Shown: piece after piece, positions 1 to 54,270 of the stretch
Layout of the letters: each line of letters opens with the position of its first letter
Position numbering within the stretch: position 1 is the first letter of the stretch
NCBI GenBank assembly: GCA_045837725.1
Contig: JBEWZL010000109.1
Location: 62,001 to 126,000, forward strand
DNA length: 64,000 nucleotides
Direction: 5' to 3'
Source of the DNA: Vermamoeba vermiformis
Taxonomy: Eukaryota
The notes under the pieces: generated by a model
Told to the model about the DNA's origin: nothing
What the model saw: the letters and a program-made list of their open reading frames with translations, nothing else
Databases searched by the model: none
Position numbers and translations under genes: made by a program

Positions 1-71
1 ATTATATTATTTAACGTTAATTTAAAATTATATTTGAGATAAATATTATTCAGATCGCGATCAAGCCGTAC

Positions 72-192
72 CTTCACGCTCGCCACGACCACCTCTGCCT
101 CCGCGGCCACCAAAGCCACCTCGACCTCCACGACCACGATCACCGAAGCCACCACGACCTCCGCGGCCTCCTCGACCTCCTCTTCCTGACAT
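72..192 (-). CDS. First exon of an RGG/GAR-rich protein (GAR1/fibrillarin/RPS2-type N-terminus); gene runs off the window start
   Basis: ATG at 192 gives MSGRGGRGGRGGRGGFGDRGRGGRGGFGGRGGRGGRGERE followed by a GTACGG donor; family cannot be fixed from the RGG tract alone. Confidence 0.7.
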
Positions 193-368: not shown

Positions 369-3300
369 TCAAACCAGCTTCTTTTGGGCTCTTGCCTTGG
401 GCTTCTTCAAACCCTTCGGTCTGAACTTGCACGCTTGTTTCAAGATCAAGTTGCCAGTGATGTACTCCATGCAGTACATGCACGGTGAGTTGACGTCGCA
501 CCAGCTCAAACGCTTGATGCCAGCTTTAGTCTTGCGCGAGGGCATGCCATTAGTGCCGAGCATGTCTGCAATGTTGACGTCGCTCGAAACAGCCTCGTTG
601 AGGTTGACGATGTTTTCTTTGTCGTCCACCGCGCCGTTACTGCGCAGAGACCGCTTGACGCGCTTGTTAGGCTCGTAGCTGCCGTCAACGTCATCTTCTT
701 CACGCTTTCGACGACGACCAGGACCGGTAGCCGCGCGAGGTGCAAGAGGCGTAGCAGGCAACGAGACAGACATCTTGAGCGGTGTTGGGACTGCCAATGA
801 GTTCGAAGTCTTTGAAATGGTGTGATCCTGCACAGCTCCTGAGTGAGCAAAGTCGGACTCGGGACCGCCTCGGAAGTACCGAGTTTCGATCTTAGTTGTG
901 CCGATCTTCGTCTTGTTCTCAATCTGAACTGTGATGGTCACCAACTTCTCGATCATGTCCTCATCAGCAGGCTCCAAGTCAACTTCCATGTCTGACTCGC
1001 TGCTGGAAGGAATGTTCGGCACAGGCTTGGACAAGCCATCTTCAGGCAATTTCTCGTCAGTGGCGAGCAAGGACGAAGTCGAACTATCCTTGAGCTCCTC
1101 TGTCTTGATCTTGACGTCGGTGGCATCGCTCGAAGACTCGCTGACCTCACTAGTAGCGTTCAAGTCGATCTTGCTAATGTCCACCAACAATTGTGCTTCT
1201 TCAGGCTTTGCCTTGCTCAACTTGGCACGCATCTTAAAAGGCAAGCGGCGAAGGTTACCGTGTTCGATGAACGAAAGGGATCCGTCATTTTCGCTAGTGC
1301 TGTTTTCAGTGTTGTTATTTACATTGCTGTCGATACTGCAGTTGCTGTTGCTGTTCTCGATCTCCATCTCGTTTGATAGAACAGTAACTGTGTTACTCAA
1401 ACGAGTGGGCTCGATCTTGATTGGAGTGGCAGGCAACGACCAAGGCTCTTGCTTCGGAGGGACACGTGACTTTTGAAGCAGTTTTCTTCTGGTCTCAAAC
1501 TTTAGGGAAGCTAAAAATAGGTCGTAAGATTCTGATAAACTAAAATTAGTAAAATCGTTTGAAAACTTACGATAAGTGACGTGGATCTTGAGAGTCAAAG
1601 TGGTGTTGCCTTCAGAATCTGTCTCTTCATTGTAGTGGTGCGGATCATCTTCAGGAACGCAGAAGATGTTGTCCTCTTCGACAGGCTCATTGCTGTTATT
1701 ATTTACAACGATCGATTCGGGTTCTTCGACCGGTTGCAAAGGCAGTAAGTCACCAGAGCTGTTCAGATCCAGGGAATCGCTATTTACAAGTGAATCTTCT
1801 TTCTTTGGCGACGAACTGCCTTCGCAAGTCGAGAGCGGGGTGGTCATTGCATCGGAGGGGCGAGTAGCACTTTCAGAAGTGGTTGTCGGACGCACTTCCG
1901 AAGCGTTGCTGTTCTCAGATTTTACAATCTCTGATGCAGGGGTATGTACAGGGGTAGGGGATGGGAGTGTAGTGGTTTCGGTAATAAGGAGGGTGTTGTC
2001 TTCGTCGGTTGCATCGATGATTTCACGAGTTTCTTCTTTGATGATAGGAGCCAAGATCGGGCGTGAATCTGCGGCGAGTTGGATTGGTCTAGGAACAGGA
2101 ACGTCTGTCATAGCAACATCAATATCAGAATGATCGCTGCTATCAACGAGAGCGCTCCTCTTTCCTCGACTATTTTCAACGATGAGGTCGGTGATCTTGC
2201 AACTAGTTTGTGGTTTCAGATGATTGCTTTCAGAAACAAGCAAGAATTTGTAACGGAGGTTGCCATCGGGACCTTTCTCGCGCCAATAGAACTTGACTTG
2301 ATAAATGCCATCATAAGTCCAGCCTTGTTGAGGAGCAAATCCAGAGTTCAACTGGCTGCTGCGAACCAATCTCAAAGCAATCTTCTGCTCGTAGTTTGTT
2401 CGCAAAGCCTTGTTGTAGTGATTGTCCATCGACTGGTGCTCAAAAGGCGTTCCATTTCTGCGTCGACCTCCACATCCAGTATAGACGACTACTTTGCCAA
2501 GGTCAATGTCTTCACCGTAGCCGCCGCTCATCAATACAGACTCTGCTCCCTTCTTAGAGTTGCCGCATACGCCACCTAAATACGATCGATCAGAAAATGT
2601 TAGGGTTGCCAGACTTCAAAGAGATCTGTCAACGTGAAGAGGTTGATAGAGATCCCGATTGCGGCATCATACCGATCGGCTTTCTATGAACAGCTTTAGT
2701 CCATAATTCCGCGCGCTGCATAAAGCAGGCTCCCTCTTTATATTCGATGTTGCCGTAAAGCTCTTTCACTTAAAGAGAGAAATTTTAACATAGAAAGGGA
2801 AACTAGAAGATACTAATCTCTAGCGCGATTTGTTGACTTTGAAACTATATATAGAACTACTAGGGTAACTACCTTTCAGACGAGTAGCACTAAGTTGCTG
2901 ATATTCCTTCGCAAGGGCCACATCTCGTGCGATCCGATCTAACGCAGCTTCATTCACTGGAACGAATTCTAACGAATAATACGTTAGATAGTGCATTCAT
3001 ATACTATTTACATGAGGCAGTGCTATTGTTGTTGCTTACTAATAATGTTACGGAAAGTAAGGTTGATTCGGATGCCCTCTTGGTTTCTGACTTTCGGGAC
3101 GCAGTGTTCGTAGTACTTTTGCACTATACAAATGCCGTTAGAGCAGGTTTACGACGGAATAAAAGCTCCGCGGTGAGGTATTTAGTTCTAAAAATAGCTG
3201 CGTCAAATCCGCTAAGTACCTTCACCGAACATAAGCAGCAGAGTGCCGTGTTCCAAATTTACGAACTTCTTTTCTTCTGTCAAGCCACTTCCCTTCTTGG

Positions 3301-9854: not shown

Positions 9855-11682
9855 TTACAGTTCAGTTTTAGGATTCGAGTCTCCACCGCGCAACATTGGC
9901 AACACGGAGAGCTTGAAGTAGTACCAGCCAATCAAGAACAGCACCACCATCACGAAGAAGAGCACGGGCTGGAACAAATGAAGGTTGAGCGGTTCGATGT
10001 TGATGAAAGCACGAATGCGTCTGATGGCTGGCGTGTTGACCTCGAGGGGCGGGCAATATTCGCCAGGACCGTACACGAGCCACTGATCTCCTGCTTTGTG
10101 CACTTTGCCCTTGTCGTCACGGAACTGTTCGCGAGCACTGACCCAAATCGCTTCTTCAGGGCTCAACAGAATGACTCGCTGCACAACACCACTCTCGAGT
10201 GCTTCACCTGGCTTCAAGAAGAAGGCGATACTTTGACGCTTGCCGTCGATCACTTCACCACGCACTAACTTTCTGACTCCCAATTGAGGCTTGCCGTCTT
10301 CACCAACAGGGATTGACAATAACACTAGGCAAAGTCAGTCCAAACTATCCAAGCTTAGATCCAGCAATTGAGGTACGTACCAGTAGCTCTGCTCATCGAC
10401 AATAGTTATCTTCACTTGTTGCGTGACTTCTTCATTGACGTCAGGGATGTAGGCCTCGCTGACGTCTTTAGTGACCAACCTATTTGCAACAAATGGCGTT
10501 AGTCATGATAATTTTCAATTGCCACGTCAGATATTTTGTTCGGTTCACTGAACCATTTTCACTGAACGCTTACCATTCCTCACCAGCACGACGAGACACG
10601 CCTCGACTGTCAACGAACGTTCTCTTCGCCTTCAAATGCAAGCTACAACTGCGCGTTAGAACAACACAAAGCTGACGTCAGACAATTGTTGCACACTTAC
10701 GCATTGACGTCGGTCAAAATGTACGCGTTGACGACCTCCACGACGACTTCATTCACGTCAGGCAAGTACGCGCCTTCTTGTTTCACGAGCCACTCTTCAC
10801 CGGCCTTGCGCTTGACTCGTTGGTAATCCACGCAGTCGTCTTTAGCTCGCAGTTTGAGGGCTTGATTGGGCTTGAGAATGATGGCGCGCACCGTGGCCAC
10901 GATTTCAACCTCGGGCTGCGGGTAATAGGTCTGCGGGCCTTTAAAGTGCCACTCTTCACCTGCACGACGGAAGGCTTTGGCGTAACGATCTTCAAAGTCG
11001 CGCTTGGATTTCAATTTCAGCGCGGTGTACTCTTCGACGATTTGTAGCGGTTGAATGTTGCCTTCGAGCTTTTCACCTGGATAAAGAGGAAAAGGATCTT
11101 GTTCAAATCTGATCTCTTGGTCTCCGTGGCGTAATCGAGCTTGTCCGTATTCATCCATAAGCTAGAAATTGGTTAATTAATTTATAGATTGCAAGGAAGG
11201 GTAAAACGTACAACGATATCGCCAGATTCTCCGGATTTCTTCAAGACCGGGTTAGAAATAACGGCAAAGTGGCGTGGCGGAATAGTAATCATCTTTGCAG
11301 GGCCCAACACCACTATGAATATTAGAGCGTTAGATATTTTAAATAAAGACTGCGGTGACGTCAACAGTTCAATTATTTCTTTGAAAATACCATTAATTTT
11401 GATCAGTTAATACACCCAAATTTAATTATAGTCGAGCTATAATAATGGCTAATTTATTTGATTTTATGAACAATAAATTTTGAATTTTCTTTGTTATTTT
11501 TGGATGTCTTACCTTTCTCGTGTTCCAAGCATGTAAATGTTTTAGGACCAGTCTCTACTGTGACCACGTTTCTATTGGTGTCCAAAATATGCAAGTAATG
11601 GAACGGCGGAATTCTTGATTGAATGTTAACGACAAAGACCTTAGCATAGATCCGTGCTTGCTTACCTGATAATATAATCCAT
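9855..11682 (-). CDS. Major vault protein-like: repeats R1-R7 only, plus C-terminal transmembrane helix and KTEL end; apparent 1-nt frameshift at 10309-10311
   Basis: [49 protein letters not shown], three RxAGEEW repeats, GKPQLG, FFLKPGE, KAGDQWLVYGPGEY; ends FQPVLFFVMVVLFLIGWYYFKLSVLPMLRGGDSNPKTEL*. Confidence 0.9.
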
Positions 11683-13148: not shown

Positions 13149-14209
13149 ATGGTCCTTGAAGACATTCTCTGTGAAGCGTCGGCCGTCGTTTGGCTTGCTC
13201 ATCTGCTCTTTTTGATCAAAGAAGCCGGCTTTACGTACCTGAACAAACACGAAGGAAGGCACCTTTATGAATCATTTCAAAAGTAAGTTAATGATATCGC
13301 CTCCTATCAATTTCGAATTTGTTGCTAATCCGAAAATTAATTATTTCAAGGGCTATGCGGGCTCACGATATTAGCAGCTTCACCATACCTACTGCTGAAG
13401 GTGATATCATCACGATTTTTAAGTTAAGGAGTACAGAAACTCCAGGTAGCCTGGCATCTACCCTGGCAGGTAAGTACTCTCGCGACTGAAAGTGACTGTT
13501 TCTAATTCGCGCAGATATTGCTAGGAATGTCACGCCTCTGATCGACGAATGGCCTCCCGAAAGTGTTGGCCCGAAGTACCTGAAGCAACTATTGTCGTGT
13601 GCCACCCTACCTGACGGACCATTTGTCGGCCCTCACATCTTTCCTACGAAAGAAGAATTACGAACACGTCATTCAAAGTACATGAATCTACCGACAAATT
13701 CATCTACGGCTTACAACATCACTACAACACATTATGCCACGGCCCATGGGTGCCTGTCGAACAAGCCTCTGGATTCAAAGATGGTTTCGGCCAGCCAAAG
13801 GACTCAAACGTACTTGCCTTGGGATCCTTCGACTATTCGACACTCACTTGCGTTAGACGAGGACATTGCGGAACTTACTTCTCTTGTCAATGATGTGCCT
13901 TCCTCAATGGGCCTGGAACTGGACATTGACGCAATGATCACCGAGCTCCAAGCAAATCCGAGCTGCGAGCCCAAGCCACCGTACTTGCCTTTCCACTACA
14001 AGGAATGCAACGTTGAATGCTACCCCAGGATTGAACAACAAATGCAGGTGATACCACTCGCATCCGCGACATTTCAACTGCCTCAGATGGAAGTCGAGAG
14101 ATATGGCTTCTATACATATACGCCACCTGTCCTACCGGTATCTTTGGATATCAACAAGACGCTCTCGAGCTTTGGCCTCAACAGAGGTTATGGATACTAT
14201 AATTGTTAG
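13149..14209 (+). CDS. Hypothetical protein, 3 exons; N-terminal domain resembles that of the gene at 15140
   Basis: Phase-compatible GTAAG introns at ~13283-13350 and ~13470-13514 join MVLEDILCEASAVVWL... to ORF 13592-14209; start codon uncertain. Confidence 0.6.
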
Positions 14210-14369
14210 CTAATGACCGAGCTAATCGTAAGTCACTCGTACAGTTTAAAAATTGAGCTAACCATCATATTTCTTAGAACAAATCGGTCACCTAGTATAG
14301 ATAAACTGCAGCAACTTTTTACTGCGAGAACGAAGAATACGTCTTACTTCATCGCCTTGGCTGATTTTT

Positions 14370-14614
14370 GTGAGGCGACTGTATCTTGGTTTTGCTGACA
14401 AGGAGGAAGAGGAGCCTTGGGTCAGGCGCCACTACCGGGGAGGCGGGCGGAGTGAAGTCTCGTTGTTGCTGTGCTTCGCTGAAGAGCTAAGACCTAGCTT
14501 TTTGGTGTTGTGCGGTGATGACGAGGCTTTACTCCGCCCGCCTCCCCGGTAGTGGCGCCTGACCCAAGGCTCCTCTTCCTCCTTGTCAGCAAAACCAAGA
14601 TACAGTCGCCTCAC
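14370..14614 (+). ncRNA. Long hairpin RNA (hpRNA / pre-miRNA-like inverted repeat)
   Basis: 14370-14453 is the exact reverse complement of 14531-14614 (84 bp). The inner 36 bp (14454-14489 with 14495-14530) has 21 Watson-Crick pairs, 13 G-U, 2 U-U and no indels. 5-nt loop AGACC. Confidence 0.75.
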
Positions 14615-15139
14615 GATTATTGGACTGAGGGCCGATGCGGTGGACCTATAGCGTCGAAACATTGCCCACGAATGCAACAGAAGCAACAAAACAGCTGAAG
14701 TTGTGTTAGAGTATGCCCCTTACGAATTCATTATGTTTCGATGTCTTCCAACTTGTAGTATTTTCATTACATAAACACACATTTTTCATTAAGAACACAC
14801 CACTTTTCTGCCCGAGACTAATGAAGCGAATGAAAAACGCATTCAGCCTATAAATTCATATGCAATTGCATTAGCGCAGTAAGTCAGCGGAGCAAGTACC
14901 GAAGAGAAATTTTGGTGACTCTTTGACACTAAAAGGCACTAGCTGAGGACCACTTTAGGTTCGCGTTGAACCTGATTCTAGACATGGACGTGTGCAAGCA
15001 TTGATGTATTAAGGATTAACATTCAGCGCAGCATTTTTGCGCAAGAAAAAATCCGTGGATTAAACTCACGACAAAAGCGAAAAATAGCGAAACCAAACCA
15101 CTTTTCAGCCAACAAAGATAGAACACAACAAATATCTTC

Positions 15140-16425
15140 ATGTCTGATAGTTTGGTTTCGGAGCCCAAAACCTCCGATTCAGATTTGGCCTCAAAGCACC
15201 CTGACATCTGGGACGAGGATGCTCTTGTTTGGTTGGATAACTCCAGCTGGGTATTCTTACTCAAGAAGGACGGCATTAATGCAGAAATTAAGAAGAACAA
15301 ATATGACACCTTCCGACACAAGTAAGTTCCAATTCAAATTCGACACTTTTTTCAATCCAGCAATTTAATTATTAATTAATTATTAAGGCACATGAAACCA
15401 ATCGGAATTAAATTAATGAAGGTGCCTCATAAGAAAAATAAGAACAAGTACACTACTTGCTGCGTAATTGAATCCGCTCCGGAAGCAAAACCAACAAAGG
15501 GCCTGAAAAACCGACTGGAAACAATGCTGGCAAGCCATGAGGATCGTGATAATAATCCTCTGGATGTATACATTGCCCCTGATCGCTTTCAAGACCCGAA
15601 TGATGACATTTCTGACCGGGTTGCTGATTCGGTGCGGATTTTGTTTGACTGGCTCGCAGGGAAGGAAGAAACCCCAAATCTTCGTAAGTACTCAGAGTAA
15701 TTATCTAGTACCACATTCAATAACTAATTGGTGCAGGGCGTGCTCGAGAGCTCTTATTCCAGTTCCTGCAACAACTACGAGATGAGAAGCCCTTCTCTGA
15801 CCTCCCTGATCCAACGAAAGAGCTTCGTGCCGTTGACACTCCCTCGCCATCCAGCCAAGAAGAGGGCAGCGTCACAAATGAAGTGGAGCCAGTGGCGAAG
15901 CAGGAATCGCAACCGGATCTGACCGAACCTCCTGTCTTACCCTCTGCTGCTCTCAATGATACTCAACACCCTGGCTCGAGTGACCGCTCCTCGACTTGGC
16001 CTGCACAACAATCAGTTGCCCTCAACACCAGTGCTAGTGACGGTGCTGCAGAGGTGGAAGTGCACGATCAAGGTGACAGTTCGCTTCACGTGTCGGCGAC
16101 AGAGGCGAGTGATGAAGCTGATCAGCCGCCTAGAAAGAAGCGCCGACTTGGTGACAAACAAGACCCAGAACAGACTAAGAACGATGCTGCCGCTGAGGAC
16201 TCTCAGCTTGTTGTCACTGAGGGCACGACCTCTCAGCCTGCCAGCGATATGGAGCTTTCACCCTGTCACTCGCAGTCACCATCGATTCGTGAGCCCCGCT
16301 CTCCTGATAATGGCTTCCCAGCTGGCGCTTTCAAGTTCAATTTCGACAACAACACTAACGCAATCTCACAACAACTCACGGGTGATCATATCTATGATAT
16401 GTTTGTCCGTGGATTTGCAGATTAG
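15140..16425 (+). CDS. Hypothetical nuclear protein with N-terminal globular domain and S/P/E-rich tail; 3' end uncertain (may extend to ~16777)
   Basis: Exons ~15140-15321, 15388-15683, 15737-16425 in phase; NLS-like PPRKKRRL. Confidence 0.65.
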
Positions 16426-24557: not shown

Positions 24558-27500
24558 ATGAGTGCCATCGACGAGCAGGTATGTCCACGGTTAATACCGC
24601 GCTTCCCGTTCCGAAATCTGTTTGTAACGCGTTTGGAATCCATTTCTTGTGACGCAAATACCCGAAATTTTGTTTTGATTAATCCTATAATTATTATAAT
24701 TATTATTGTCGTGCATATTCATTAATATCTTGCGGTCTAGGCTAATACGATCAGGGTCTTCGTATCTGATCAAAAGAGTGTAGCGCTCAACCTTGACAAT
24801 GTTGCCAAAATGACCGTCGAGGACCTTATGGTCCATTTAATTGGTAATACTGGTCCCGAGGAATGCAGAGGACGAGTGGATGTTACCATTTATTCATGGG
24901 CTGAAAAGGGCGGAAAACGTAAGGACTAGAAAATATTAGAATTAAGCACGCTGCTTATTTATTTGATGTTTGTATTAATCTAATTTCATTCAGACGAACT
25001 GAAAGGTTTGGATTTCAAAAAACAATTAGTTAGCATTAAAAAGAAGTGGTCGGCTAAACCCGATACCACTTATAGACTATTAGTGCTGGGAGCTACTGAA
25101 AAATTCGTAAGTTTCCAATTTGATTTTGTTTGATCTGCTGCGCGTTATTTGTGAACCACTTTTTATCGCGGGGTTGTCACTCGTCAACTCAGGACGTAAC
25201 CGCAACACGAATCTGATAATATCTTATTTATCCACCTATTGTTCTAAAATTATTCTCATATTTTTATCGTCATTTTAACGCTCATTAATCAACAAAAATG
25301 AAAGATCCGCTGAAAATTCAAAAAAATACCAAAAAAATTAACTAATTTGTCAATTTAGAGCCCAGCAGGTGCAACAGGAGTTAAAGTTGATAAAAAAGCA
25401 CGCAAATCAGAAGTGCGTAGCTCTAAGCGTGTGACATCGGTTGCTCTGCGCAATCGCGATGCCAAGGCCGCAGCAGCCGATGGCACTAAGTCCCCGCCAC
25501 CTCTCTCACCCACGTCATTGCCTCCTCCACCTCCTATTGGCGTGCCGGACATTCCTACTGGCAGTAAGAATTCACCAAAATAATTTTAAATTAATTTTAA
25601 AACACGAGCGCTAATTCGCCAATTAATTCAGTTTTGCCTCCACCACCACCTCTCACCAACAATATTCCCTTGCCACCACCGCCCCCCGCTGCACCTCTTC
25701 CTCCACCTCCTCCAGATGTTACACAGACTACCAAGGCTGAAAAACGAAAGAGCGACAAGAGCAGCAGCATGTCGAAGTCAAAATCAATGCGCAGTGTTCG
25801 CCATCAATCTGAAAAGCCAAAGAGTCGTCAAAAGGTCGCTGGCGGTGGTCCAGGCACGATGCGTGGTTCACCTTCGACCCCTGTGGTGTCTAACAACAAC
25901 GTTACATTCGACCCCGAGAAGAAGATGAAAGCCAATGACATTCTCGAGCAATTGAATCCTTTCGTCGATCCTTCAGGCCATTATAAATACGAAGAAGAGC
26001 CTGCCAGACCCGATTTCTTGCTCACAGCTGACGACTTGAAAGCTGGTTATTACAACTTGAATACGAATAATGCTAACAAATTGGCTCGCTCTGAATACCA
26101 TCAAAAGGTACGTGAAGCAAGCCTTAAAAGGCAAATTTTGATTTTTAATAATTAATTAACGAATTAAAAATCACAGATCTTGATGGCTTGGGTGAACAAA
26201 CACTTGAAAGAGCGTGATATGAAAGTTGAAAACTTGGCAAAGGACTTCCAAAACGGTGTTATTTTAATTAACTTGCTCGAAGCGATTTCCGGTCAACAAG
26301 TCAAGACTTACTATCGCGAGCCCAACCGTTTGTATCAATACTTGGAAAACCTCGAAGTCGCCGTCAAATTCATGAATTACTTGGGTCTTCCTATTATGGC
26401 TGCTCCTCAAGGTAATTTATTATTATTTGGTTATTCGGACCAGTGTTTTAATTATTAATGCGCGCAGATTTCTACCACGGCAAATTGAGCACAATCGTTG
26501 GTTTCTTGTTCGTGGCCATTCAAAAGTTCAAGGACGGCAAGAAGGGCACCAAGAAGGCCAAGAAAGTTGACATTGAAGCGAACAAACACACTGACGCTAG
26601 TGCGACCAAGTTGTTGGCTGAAGAAGGTAAGATTTCGGATATTTTAGCTGTGAATTTTAATGTAACCCGTAGCCCAAGGTTCTGCTCCTGCGCCCTCAGA
26701 ACGACCATTGTCACGCAGCTCTCCTGGCTCACCGACCACAATCGTCCCTCCCGCTAACTTGCCTCCGCCACCTAAGCGCGATTACAGCGACTACGATGAC
26801 ACGCCCTCTAGTCCCACGGGCACTGTCAGTCCGCCAATGGTCTCTCCTCGCGGAGGTTTCCAATTGCCGCCTATCCCTGCTGCACGCAAAGCAGGAGGAC
26901 CTGGCCCACTTCCCTCACCCTCTGGTGGACGACCAAAGAGCATGCAATTAGACCGCAGTCAAATCAACAGAACAGAGGACGCTATGACTTCCACAGCAAT
27001 GCCCAAAATACCGCCACGTGTCTCGCCTCGAAATCCGCCCCCAAGCAATTTGCCTCCTCCACCCACCAACAATCTGCCGCCACCACCCGAGTCAGGTGAT
27101 AACTTGCCCCCGCCACCCATCAACTTGCCTCCCCCTCGCAATCCCACCGTCAACTTGCCGCCACCCAAGCAAGGTCTGCCCAAGACAGCCGTGCCTCCTC
27201 CTAAGAAGGGAGGTGCTCCACCCAAACTCATTCCCAAACTGCCGCCTCCACTTGCTGCACGCAAAGCCGCTGGTCAACCTCTCGACAGCCCGCACGGCGT
27301 CAGCACACCACACACTCCCACCGTGCACACACCGCACACGCCGTCACTTATGACACCCACCGCTGAGAGCCGCTCTGCAGCACTGCAGCACTCGCAATCT
27401 GGCTCAGCGATGTTGCCCTCAGCATTGCCTGTTACCAACAAACGAAAGACAGAAATTCTTGCGGACGATTATGGCGCGGAAGACGAAGAGATCAACTTGG

Positions 27501-27712
27501 ATGACTTGGACGACGCAGCCATTCTGCAAGACATTGTGGATCTCGAGAACTTTGAGCTCGATATGGACAAGCTGTTAGCACCTGAAAGTAACGACGATAT
27601 TTTCGGTGATCTCGATTCCATGCAAAACTTTTTGGACGACGTTGCTGGAGGCATGGAAGATCTGGATCTGACTTTCGATCTGGATTTGGACAAAGTCGTT
27701 CTGTCGTTCTAA
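24558..27712 (+). CDS. Cytoskeletal adaptor: RA/ubiquitin-like domain, polyproline, calponin-homology domain, polyproline, acidic tail
   Basis: MSAIDEQ|ANTIRVFVSDQKSVAL...MTVEDLMVHL...KKWS (RA-like); AWVNKHLKERDMKVENLAKDFQNGVILINLLEAISG (type 1 CH); repeated NLPPPP; D/E/L-rich end. Confidence 0.8.
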
Positions 27713-42956: not shown

Positions 42957-44449
42957 TTAGTCCTGGAAGGCAATGTTGTTCAAGCCACCAATGCTCGTGA
43001 TGCGTGACTCGATGGATTGATCCAGTTTGTTGACTTGTGCCTTAATTTTCTCCGCGGAATAGGTATACTTTTCGAGCTTTGCCCGTCGTTCCTCCTACAA
43101 CAAAGTAGTTAGTCATAGGTTTCTAAGTCGTAGGTCGGATCCACACAACGTACCATGGAGACGTCTTCATCGTCGTAAATCAAGTTGAATTGAGGCTCAG
43201 CCTTCTCAGTCGGAGCTGGCTGTTGCGTAGGTGTGGGATAAGGATAGCCTACGAACAAGAACCATTTAACAATCATTATTCGGTACTTACGAACTCCTCA
43301 TCAGAGGTGCAGGTGTTCATTATTATGTTACTAAATAACACAATTAACGTGCACAAATAAATCGTTATGAAGTGATTTGTACTCCCTGCGCAGGTGCACT
43401 CTGACGAGTATTGTTATTGAACACCTACCTTGTGGTTGAGCACCTGCGATTGGAAACAGCGGTTGTGGCGGTCCTGCTGGCGGCATTCCCATTGGCACGT
43501 GTGCGCCATAGCCAGGAGGTGGGATGCCCATACCAGGAGCCATCGGAGGCATTCCTGGAGGCATTCCTGGAGGCATTCCTGGGGGCATGCCTGGTCCGGG
43601 CATGGGGGGCATGCCAGGGCCCATCGGTGGCATTCCCATCGGACCCGGTGGCATGCCGTAGCCTGGCGGGTAAATAGGGCGGCATACCAGGGGCACCCAT
43701 GAATGGTCTGTTATGCGTGTTAGCAGTGCTGTACATTAGGCGCGAAGAATAAGTTGAGTGCACGTACGGGTAACCCATTGGCGGGGCACCATAAGGAGGC
43801 AGGCCAGCAGGGACTTGTGCGACGGGAGCTGCGTCTAACTTGCGCTTCTTGGCAGCAGGCTCTGTAGTTAAGATGAAATGATCAATTTCAAGCGCGAGAC
43901 TCGAAGGAGATGCGACGTAACGTACCTTCAGTTGGAATGCCTGCCATTCCGAGAATATCTGTTTTGATTGAGTCTTTGCCAGGTATAGCGTTAGGTACCC
44001 TATTAAGGTGTTAATATTCGGCCGAATAGAAGCGAGGATAAGACTTACTTGTTGACTGTTTGTTTATGGACTTGGAAGACGTGGATGACCATGCCACCGA
44101 CTGAAGCAAGCTTCTTCTTGCATACTGTACATTTAAAGTGTTTTGCTTTTTGATGTTGAATTAAATCTGACTCGGAAGTAAATGGTCGATCGCAGTACCT
44201 TTAAAATAATAAAAAATAATCGTTAGAAAAATTCTATAAATACTTTAAAGCCCTCCAATCCAATGTGCCGTACCAGCAAAATAAGGAGTCATTTTTCTTC
44301 TTTTTTCTCTTTCGTTTCTTTCTGTTTCCGTCGGATTCACTCCAGTCTTCAGATTTCTCGTCGTTTTGGTCATTTGTCGTATCTTGAGTGTCCTCATTAC
44401 CCGTAATGTTCGAGTCCGTATTCTGTACTGAATTGTCGTCTGCGTCCAT
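42957..44449 (-). CDS. ZNF207: BUB3-interacting GLEBS zinc-finger protein ZNF207/BuGZ-like
   Basis: [46 protein letters not shown]-like segment, Pro/Gly/Met tract, [13 protein letters not shown]. Confidence 0.85.
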
Positions 44450-52579: not shown

Positions 52580-54270
52580 TTACAATTCTTCAATCATTGC
52601 GTCCTCAGGCACTCCATTGTTATTGTTAGTATTATTAGTATTGTCGTGCTTATTCTTGTTTTTCTTCGAGCTCTTGGTCAAGATCTGCTCCTCTTCCTCC
52701 TCCTCTTCGTCAACGAGATTAGGGACTTGCTTATTATCGGAGACACCGCGCTGCGATACTTCAATCTTCAGCAAGGCACGCACAGCTGTGAAATGATAGT
52801 TAAGGAATCAGAGGGTCATAGTCAAGGTACATTAAGTGCCACAAAAGCGTGTTGCAAAAAAAAAGGATACGTCCACGACAGATCGGACACTTGTTGGACT
52901 GATAACGCAACGTCTCTGCGCACTCATTGCAGAGGCACAAGTGACGACACGGGATCACGACTGAGTTGCGCGGGGCACTCAGACAAATAACACATTCTTC
53001 CGCGGGGTTCGTGTTGCCGAACTTGAGCTGTTCAATGCCGTAAATGTCGTGCACTACGTAGAAGGCGCCGTTGTACTGCACGATGAATTTGACAGTTAGT
53101 GACACGAAGTTCACGCTCGCACAGCTGTTACGTACCAAGATCTTTTGTTTGTACACTTTCAAGTCGACGTTGTTCTCGCCTGCCTTGACAATGCTCGCGT
53201 ACGTGATTTGCGTTGTGATCTTTTTCTCTTTGTTGTTCTCGGCGGCTATTAATAGACTCGTGAGTATACTGCCGTTTCAGGTACCAGTGTCACTTACGGT
53301 GTGTCGCTTCAATGAGCAGCACAACTGGGTGAATTTCTTCGTCGGCTTTGAAAGACCAGTCCTCCTCCTTGAACTGCGTCAAGTCCAAGTGATTGACAGC
53401 GGTGGTCGTGTACGTTTGGTTCAGTCCGCGGGGTTGTGGCTGTTTCGACTGCTCTTGCACGTCTAACATGGAGCGGTACCTTTATGAGGTCATACACGCG
53501 TTAATTTATGTCACATACGCCATGACACGAGTCACGGTATTAATTCCGGTATATTAAATTCAAATAATCTTATATTTCAAACTTACGATACTGATTTTCT
53601 GTCTTGATCCAAGATCTCCTTCGCCAAATAAAATATGCGAATAACGCATTCTTCTGTACAATCAAAATTGAAGGAAATATTATATACACCTAAATGAATA
53701 TGATCATTAGCGCATGTATGAAATTAACTCCGTTTGATGACGAATTGTTGGAAAGGGATCGATCTGGTACTCTGCGCATGTATTCGGGCAATTACCTTTT
53801 TCTTCCGTTGCGGTTAATTTAATAGTATTTTTGTGAATATTGACAGGGGATTTGATGCTAACAGTGTGGTTTAAAGGCGGAGTTAGATTTTGAAGGGTTT
53901 GGAGCGGCGCTTGCAAAACGCTCAAATCTGTTTGTATAATATTATAATTAATTTATAATCATTATAATTATTTTTCGGGTCATTATACTGCTAATAATAA
54001 TTGCAAATAATTATTCAATTTCGGATGTGTCACGCGCTTACTTGGAATAAAATCGTCTTCGCTGACTCTATCTGTGCCTAAGAAGAATTGGGGACCGAAT
54101 ATAAAATTAATATTGGGCTGATTTTCGTCCGCGCTCTGTCTATTCGGTTGTGGGACTGCAGGTGGACCTTGCTCGAGATCATTGTCCTCTTGCGGGTCTT
54201 GATTGGAGTCTGTATGGTGCAAGGGATCACCCTCTTGCGGGGATACATATTCACTTTGTCTGTTGCCCAT
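52580..54270 (-). CDS. MGRN1: MGRN1/RNF157/LOG2-like RING E3 ligase
   Basis: MGNRQS myristoylation motif, SIKSPVNIHKNTIKL, KVYKQKI, VHDIYGIE, ECVICLSAPRNSVVIPCRHLCLCNECAETLRYQSNKCPICR. Confidence 0.88.

Follow-up and report, generated by a model that had tools for sequence, protein, structure and literature searches.

A long inverted repeat with strand-specific G:U wobbles beside its loop in Vermamoeba vermiformis, a candidate hairpin RNA gene

What is a long inverted repeat doing in the intergenic region between two plus-strand genes, and why do its arms pair perfectly over most of their length and through G:U wobbles beside the loop? The locus that raises these questions lies in a window of Vermamoeba vermiformis DNA (the whole stretch that was analysed, 64,000 nucleotides, to which all positions refer), and its symmetry axis is at i + j = 28984. 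A preliminary description, made from the letters of the sequence, had proposed a hairpin RNA or microRNA gene under selection for pairing of a plus-strand RNA. The window contains spliced genes with short introns (about 44–67 nt as inferred here) at about 42% GC; a major vault protein gene is found at about 9.8–11.2 kb and a SAD/SRA-domain gene at 369–2615. A fragment of the vault protein has a best database match of 95% identity, the second-best being at 70%. The hairpin itself is real and statistically strong, with the exception of its basal stem. As to its role, the best single reading, held by us with slightly less than even confidence, is that of a putative hairpin RNA feeding a small-RNA pathway.

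Architecture and folding of the inverted repeat

The arms are divided into two stretches that pair differently (Table 1). In an explicit pair table, the outer 84 positions are Watson–Crick pairs without exception, whereas the 36 ungapped pairs adjoining the loop comprise 21 Watson–Crick pairs, 13 G:T pairs (G:U in RNA), two T:T pairs, and no A:C pair; 34 of these 36 positions are paired, and the two U:U mismatches stand in tandem. These counts, the 5-nt loop, and the lack of indels agree exactly with the preliminary description. The robust hairpin unit, 14370–14614, is 245 nt long, or ~305–326 nt when the weak basal stem is included. At the DNA level, a repeat search recovers only 94-nt arms of 98% identity with a 57-nt spacer. 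GC content is 62% in the perfect stem, 47–50% in the apical arms, and 41–42% in the flanks, as expected from the earlier remark that the hairpin is GC-richer than its surroundings.

Table 1. Coordinates of the hairpin, its flanking repeats, and the neighbouring gene features
Feature	Position	Strand	Remarks
Upstream gene, last long open frame	13496..14209	+	stop 14207-14209; a 44-nt intron precedes the exon, which starts at about 13515; without a Pfam family
Candidate intron, GTAAGT...CTAAC...TAG	14228..14277	+	50 nt; between upstream stop and hairpin; a lead
Putative basal extension, 5' side (weak)	14331..14362	+	paired in MFE structure; z -1.2 to -1.7
Direct repeat, left copy GATTTTTG	14363..14370		possible target-site duplication; last base is the first stem base
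5' arm, perfect stem	14370..14453	+	84 nt, G-rich (36 G, 16 C); 84/84 Watson–Crick
5' arm, wobble-rich apical stem	14454..14489	+	36 nt; holds 6/13 wobble T's
Loop AGACC	14490..14494	+	5 nt
3' arm, wobble-rich apical stem	14495..14530	+	36 nt; holds 7/13 wobble T's
3' arm, perfect stem	14531..14614	+	84 nt, C-rich
Direct repeat, right copy GATTATTG	14615..14622		7/8 identical to left copy
Putative basal extension, 3' side (weak)	14623..14656	+	paired in MFE structure; z -1.2 to -1.7
Downstream gene, probable first coding exon	15140..15322	+	ATG 15140, 61 codons, then GTAAGT; inferred model

Neither the placement nor the kind of the imperfect pairs is due to chance. Non-Watson–Crick pairs occur only in the apical segment (15/36 versus 0/84 in the perfect stem; Fisher p = 1.2e-9), and the ratio of 13 G:U to 0 A:C has a two-sided binomial probability of 2.4e-4. 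Such a ratio is unlikely to be the outcome of strand-symmetric decay of a palindrome, which leaves selection on a plus-strand RNA duplex or mutation specific to the plus strand.

The strand preference is equally evident in the predicted folds. Over 14330–14660, the minimum free energy (MFE) of the RNA is −276.5 kcal/mol on the plus strand (z −28.6; a value that none of 100 shuffles reached) as against −224.8 kcal/mol on the minus strand (z −21.6), the order that the preliminary description had anticipated. The apical 77 nt alone fold with −45.1 kcal/mol on the plus strand versus −11.0 kcal/mol on the minus strand, and this gain of 34 kcal/mol upholds the strand-specific reasoning. With DNA parameters, the same 77 nt reach just −11.5 (plus) and −4.2 (minus) kcal/mol, which, together with the 57-nt spacer, bears out the idea that the wobbles break the symmetry of the DNA. 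A 150-nt sliding fold across the 64 kb (2129 folding windows) identifies the hairpin as by far the most stable segment (−115.6 kcal/mol versus a mean of −30.8, sd 8.9).

Below the perfect stem, the MFE structure includes 31 further paired positions (24 Watson–Crick and 7 G:U), interrupted by bulges, out to 14331/14656. A wobble-rich basal stem extending to about 14341/14645 had been described, and pairing in this region is indeed part of the MFE structure. Taken as 29 nt per side, the basal stem has a modest z of −2.5 on the plus strand (9 of 500 shuffles as good) and −0.2 on the minus strand; with the 7–8 nt adjoining the perfect stem removed, z is only −1.2 (120 of 1000 shuffles as good) and −1.7 (46 of 1000). 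Because most of the signal comes from the 7–8 nt next to the perfect stem, basal pairing beyond the flanking direct repeat is not clearly above chance.

Wobble pairs and the polarity of change

The T's that face G are distributed over both arms (Table 1), and 10 of the 13 precede a G (TpG). If the G:T pairs descend from G:C pairs, the implied ancestral GC content of the apical segment is 67%; if they descend from A:T pairs, it is 31%, below that of the flanks. Because the former value is near the 62% of the perfect stem, we infer that the wobble pairs arose by C-to-T change on the plus strand. An ADAR-like A-to-G origin was rejected by reasoning, as it implies the ancestral GC content of 31% and a retro-copy step in addition. 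A preference for CpG is suggestive: presupposing C-to-T polarity, 10 of 14 CpG cytosines have changed versus 3 of 10 other cytosines (one-sided p = 0.055). The apical stem also contains four tandem UG/GU steps, such as would result if the plus-strand cytosine were lost from each of two paired CpG sites.

The compositional bias that accompanies these changes is restricted to the apical part. G+T makes up 68% of the plus strand in the apical 77 nt versus 46% in the flanks, and the skews of the region (14001–16000) are small (GC skew −0.04, AT skew +0.08), which makes this a local bias rather than a skew of the region. CpG is not depleted over the window (observed/expected 1.10); methylation-driven decay, if any, would therefore be local as well.

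Insertion, transcript structure, and strand-specific mutation as alternatives

An origin by transposition is a live possibility, although in our judgement a doubtful one. The unit would be a copy of a short nonautonomous DNA transposon of the foldback or MITE type, 244–245 bp long and nearly all terminal inverted repeat, which duplicated a target of 7–8 bp; small RNAs, if any, would be a by-product, or the element could have supplied the sequence from which a hairpin RNA locus formed, in which case the two readings overlap. Like such elements, the unit is short, it has long inverted repeats at its ends (arms of 84–94 nt), it would form a hairpin if transcribed, and it is noncoding, the three open frames of the locus yielding nothing above threshold in Pfam. 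It is also bordered by a short direct repeat that abuts the perfect inverted repeat with 7/8 identity, in the manner of a target-site duplication, and whose bases the preliminary description had counted as stem. When flanking direct repeats of 4–10 nt were scanned for at 46 left boundaries and 5 offsets, the only matches lay at the edge of the perfect stem. At 42% GC, a 7/8 repeat is expected at any single fixed boundary with a probability of about 4e-4, which rises if offsets and lengths are allowed to vary. The perfect arms imply a recent event. Pairing outside the direct repeat is not above chance, and the basal stem, which might have been held against an insertion, was dropped as an argument once the flanking repeat had been excluded from it. 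The GC step from flanks to arms suits an insertion, and is just as compatible with an inverted duplication of sequence that was foreign or came from a gene.

Several properties of the unit are at odds with a foldback element. Its direct repeat is imperfect although 168 nt of arms are perfect, and the repeat, being A/T-rich and in part self-complementary, is equally readable as stem. MITEs are usually AT-rich, whereas the unit is GC-rich; no terminal motif typical of a superfamily, among those familiar to us, was recognised; and transposition offers no cause for a 13:0 bias toward G:U, strand-specific as it is, at the centre of an element. The preliminary description had named many dispersed copies with target-site duplications as the finding that would speak for such an element. 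Half of this expectation is supported, by the 7/8 flanking repeat; as for copies, the repeat search and blastn found the hairpin only once in the 64 kb.

The suggestion that the arms were copied from a target gene, a transposon, or a virus gained no support. Elsewhere in the window (63.7 kb), 21-mers of the hairpin have no site with up to 3 mismatches (10 shuffles gave one site in one case and none in nine). Apart from the inverted match of the hairpin to itself, blastn-short at word size 7 returned nothing better than a purine run of 15 nt at 52687–52701, its one other match; a gene in the window was rejected as the source. A bacterial, plasmid, or phage origin was rejected as well: a 24-nt stretch of the arm has no exact match among 185,579 prokaryotic genomes, and plasmids and phages gave no blastn match to the hairpin. 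The 40-aa arm frame singled out in the preliminary description, one of three open arm frames and the one covered by the protein search, produced two weak phmmer matches among 1.84 billion representative proteins (E = 2e-6 and 8e-4, 34–41% identity). The match that was aligned (P0121) is a repeat protein, with a 15-residue stretch at 33–47% identity, and for this frame both repeat-protein matches were rejected as a protein-coding source of the arms. Fold-back artefacts of reads or assembly give perfect palindromes that reach a contig end, and an artefact was rejected by reasoning, the hairpin being a 245-bp unit with strand-pure wobbles amid ordinary genes.

The position of the hairpin relative to the upstream gene introduces a second alternative. 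Position 14341 lies 132 nt, and the start of the perfect stem 161 nt, past the stop codon of that gene. A candidate intron with a CTAAC branch motif begins 19 nt past the stop; from its end it is 53 nt to the first paired base of the fold (14331) and 92 nt to the perfect stem. Its pattern has 28 matches in the window versus 7.8 on average over 30 simulations of a first-order Markov model, and several of the matches coincide with exon gaps of neighbouring genes. If the candidate intron is real, it suggests that the upstream transcript extends at least to 14277. The earlier proposal that the hairpin could belong to the upstream 3' UTR is plausible because this candidate intron sits between the stop codon and the hairpin. 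A location in the 5' UTR of the downstream gene appears unlikely because a TATAAAT motif near 14861 is downstream of the hairpin.

Within such a 3' UTR, the hairpin could act in cis, as a long duplex that a factor specific for double strands would bind or cut (with RNase III-type cleavage, fail-safe termination, mRNA decay, or retention as the outcome) and that gives rise to no trans-acting small RNAs. This role would be consistent with a hairpin on the strand of the upstream gene that starts 122–161 nt past the stop, with the candidate intron, which suggests a transcript reaching beyond 14277, with pairing that is specific to the plus strand, and with the lack of a trans target within the window. 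A 120-bp mostly perfect duplex, however, far exceeds the needs of known protein-binding or cleavage signals, and a separate transcript could just as well begin from the TATA-like TATAGATAAA near 14296. We consider a purely cis-acting structure improbable.

A third alternative, to which we assign a somewhat lower probability again, is that the palindrome has no function. It would have arisen by an accident of replication or repair, and its centre would have been hit by cytosine deamination specific to the plus strand, for example on a non-template strand, on a lagging-strand template, or by a RIP-like process acting on one strand, the G:U signature then being mutational and unselected. Each G:T would weaken the tip of the hairpin and expose the next cytosines. 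All 13 wobbles, in both arms, can be written as C-to-T on the plus strand, which is the coding strand of both neighbours, and the clustering of changes beside the loop and the G:U-free outer 84 bp would be accounted for with no need of gene conversion. The flanks, however, have no plus-strand G+T excess, and 11 cytosines, 4 of them in CpG, are still present in the apical plus strand. Only the 5-nt loop is single-stranded when the hairpin is folded, which makes the outward spread a conjecture. RIP is known from fungi only and acts over whole repeats, yet the perfect arms keep every one of their 10 CpGs. Moreover, both non-wobble changes form a tandem U:U mismatch, which is well tolerated in RNA.

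A candidate plus-strand hairpin RNA and its known counterparts

The reading that we prefer, tentatively and with not quite even confidence, is that the locus specifies a plus-strand hairpin RNA, probably within the upstream 3' UTR, from which small RNAs are diced. The unit at 14370–14614 would be transcribed from the plus strand, most likely in the upstream 3' UTR or else as a short unit of its own, and the transcript would fold into a duplex of ~120 bp that is continuous save for the one tandem U:U. A Dicer-type RNase III would cut this duplex into ~21-nt small RNAs, as at an hpRNA/endo-siRNA locus or a very young miRNA-like locus. The apical 36 pairs would originally have been as G:C-rich as the remaining stem and would then have changed by C-to-T transitions, for the most part at CpG sites. 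Those transitions that produce G:U in the plus-strand RNA would have been kept, and the mirror-image A:C changes purged by selection. The duplex would thereby stay intact as RNA, while the DNA would be an inverted repeat with a mismatched centre of 57–77 bp. Such a centre should reduce cruciform or hairpin extrusion and possibly self-silencing triggered by the inverted repeat.

Selection for a paired RNA is by itself no explanation of the abrupt transition from the apical segment to the perfect arms, since the RNA would tolerate G:U in the arms as well. The absence of any G:U from the 84-bp arms thus calls for a further cause, and their zero divergence would require a recent origin or a tract of arm-to-arm gene conversion. 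Also weighing against the hairpin RNA reading are the flanking 7/8 direct repeat, a basal stem near chance, the lack of a target in the window, and the CpG observed/expected ratio of 1.10.

A bolder form of the hairpin RNA reading, which we think rather unlikely, is that of a natural gene that solved the "palindrome problem" as engineers later did. CpG-to-TpG changes, kept only where they leave G:U, would have turned the centre of a palindrome with 120-bp arms into a spacer at the DNA level, blocking cruciform nucleation and self-silencing, with the RNA fully double-stranded. If this were true, the position and strand of wobbles would constitute a sequence-only signature of functional hpRNA genes in unstudied protists. 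If the unit is transcribed and diced, it would be a natural parallel of the engineered G:U hpRNA design (PMC9263138). It would then also be a clean single-copy case of a hairpin small-RNA gene at a very early age, in a eukaryote that has been little studied, with wobbles that record selection at two levels, RNA pairing being kept and DNA symmetry broken; and genomes could be searched for RNA hairpin genes by the rule of strand-pure G:U clustered at the centre of a palindrome. If it is merely a foldback element, it is ordinary.

Among known systems, the hairpin can be set beside the hpRNA endo-siRNA loci of animals and the inverted-repeat siRNA and proto-miRNA loci of plants, which form duplexes of at least 100 bp with few bulges and are located in intergenic regions or UTRs. 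It shares with them a transcript from one strand (predicted here), a long near-perfect duplex of ~100 bp or more (84 perfect pairs and 34 of 36 apical positions) in which bulges are few or absent, a place in intergenic DNA or a UTR, and wobbles of the G:U type that are tolerated on the transcribed strand only. It differs in that its arms are perfect over 84 bp, with the wobbles packed into the 36 loop-proximal pairs and not scattered, and in being known from sequence.

The relation to microRNAs is less close. No Rfam family reaches its gathering score anywhere in the window, and no tRNA was found there, consistent with the notion that the hairpin does not derive from another structured noncoding RNA. 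The family RF04119 (MIR1858), which we take to be a plant family, resembles it as a ~200-nt hairpin that is aligned over its full length (model positions 1–197), but its scores of 110 bits on the plus strand and 104 bits on the minus strand are below the gathering score of 137 bits. Because the scores are almost equal on the two strands, the match is a generic one to a long helix, and homology to MIR1858 was rejected; mir-239 was likewise sub-threshold. By the criteria of PMC11014262, a microRNA gene releases a single, precisely excised duplex and gives no further small RNAs. A mostly perfect duplex of 120 bp is expected to yield several phased duplexes. The "miRNA" part of the label proposed earlier is a poor fit, the duplex being far longer than in typical precursors: 245 nt, or ~305–326 nt with the basal stem, compared with the 75–125 nt usual for amoebozoan miRNA precursors according to PMC11014262. 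Two exceptions described there derive from hairpins of >200 nt that are near-perfect duplexes and were read by the authors as young, and miRNAs in that account are less AT-rich than their intergenic surroundings (PMC11014262). The hairpin agrees with these two in precursor length, near-perfect pairing, intergenic position, and an AT content lower than that of its surroundings. The setting is unlike that of Physarum, whose genome is described as littered with repeats and as having a median intron of 231 nt, as against the short introns of the window.

As regards the DNA, the risk posed by palindromes grows with the identity of the arms and with a short or absent spacer, and cruciform formation is a gradual extrusion, according to PMC7999016. 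For a natural hairpin with a central cluster of wobbles, a limited literature search, which does not show absence, returned engineered G:U hairpins only. Transgenes of this engineered kind, made by C-to-T substitution, still form hpRNA and evade the self-silencing of inverted repeats (PMC9263138). The likeness to the present locus is that C-to-T change keeps the RNA hairpin by wobble pairing and disrupts the inverted repeat in DNA; the difference is that every cytosine of the sense arm is replaced there, along the whole stem, whereas here the T's occur in both arms, in the apical 36 pairs only, and in a natural sequence (PMC9263138).

Surroundings of the hairpin

Between the upstream + strand gene and the hairpin, the inverted repeat read as a candidate + strand hairpin RNA, lies a candidate intron that begins 19 nt past the stop codon of that gene, which would place it in the 3' UTR. 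The combination of its three motifs is enriched approximately 3.6-fold in the window relative to Markov simulations. The top match to the hairpin outside the hairpin itself, in a search within the window (E = 0.015), pairs positions 52687-52701 with the purine-rich part of one arm; this match is of low complexity and not long enough to be called a target.

Features of the window discussed in this section
Feature	Position	Strand	Characteristics
RGG-type (arginine/glycine-rich) short open frame	60-190	-	C-rich stretch on +
SAD/SRA-domain open frame	369-2615	-	748 codons; PF02182, E 6.9e-25
Major vault protein gene exons	9855-11161	-	Vault repeats
Candidate intron	14228-14277	+	50 nt; GTAAGT, CTAAC, TAG
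Proline-rich open frame	26666-27712	+	repeated NLPPPP motifs, acidic C-terminus
GC stretch	43440-43740		62-67% GC; within long - strand open frame 43425-44063
Exact match to hairpin arm	52687-52701		15 nt; to 14401-14415, opposite strand

Other folding-energy outliers

With the hairpin excepted, nowhere in the window do the two strands differ more in folding energy than at the RGG-type open frame, where the difference is a compositional effect. The GC stretch, which sits in an open frame carrying NASRNAS-type repeats, ranks second in the window for folding stability on both strands, and this stability is probably compositional as well.

Protein-coding features

The proline-rich open frame, for which no Pfam family was matched, is the origin of D1 and D2, two direct repeats from the repeat search of the window. 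The closest database protein to the major vault protein is a 376-aa fragment (JGI record) with 95% identity, followed by a second at 70%; at 95% identity, a close relative has therefore already been sampled, and the source organism itself seems to be absent from the protein set searched. Outside its domain, the SAD/SRA protein is of low complexity and rich in Ser, Asn, and Glu. The SAD/SRA domain family binds methylated cytosine, which makes this gene relevant to the question of CpG methylation in the organism.
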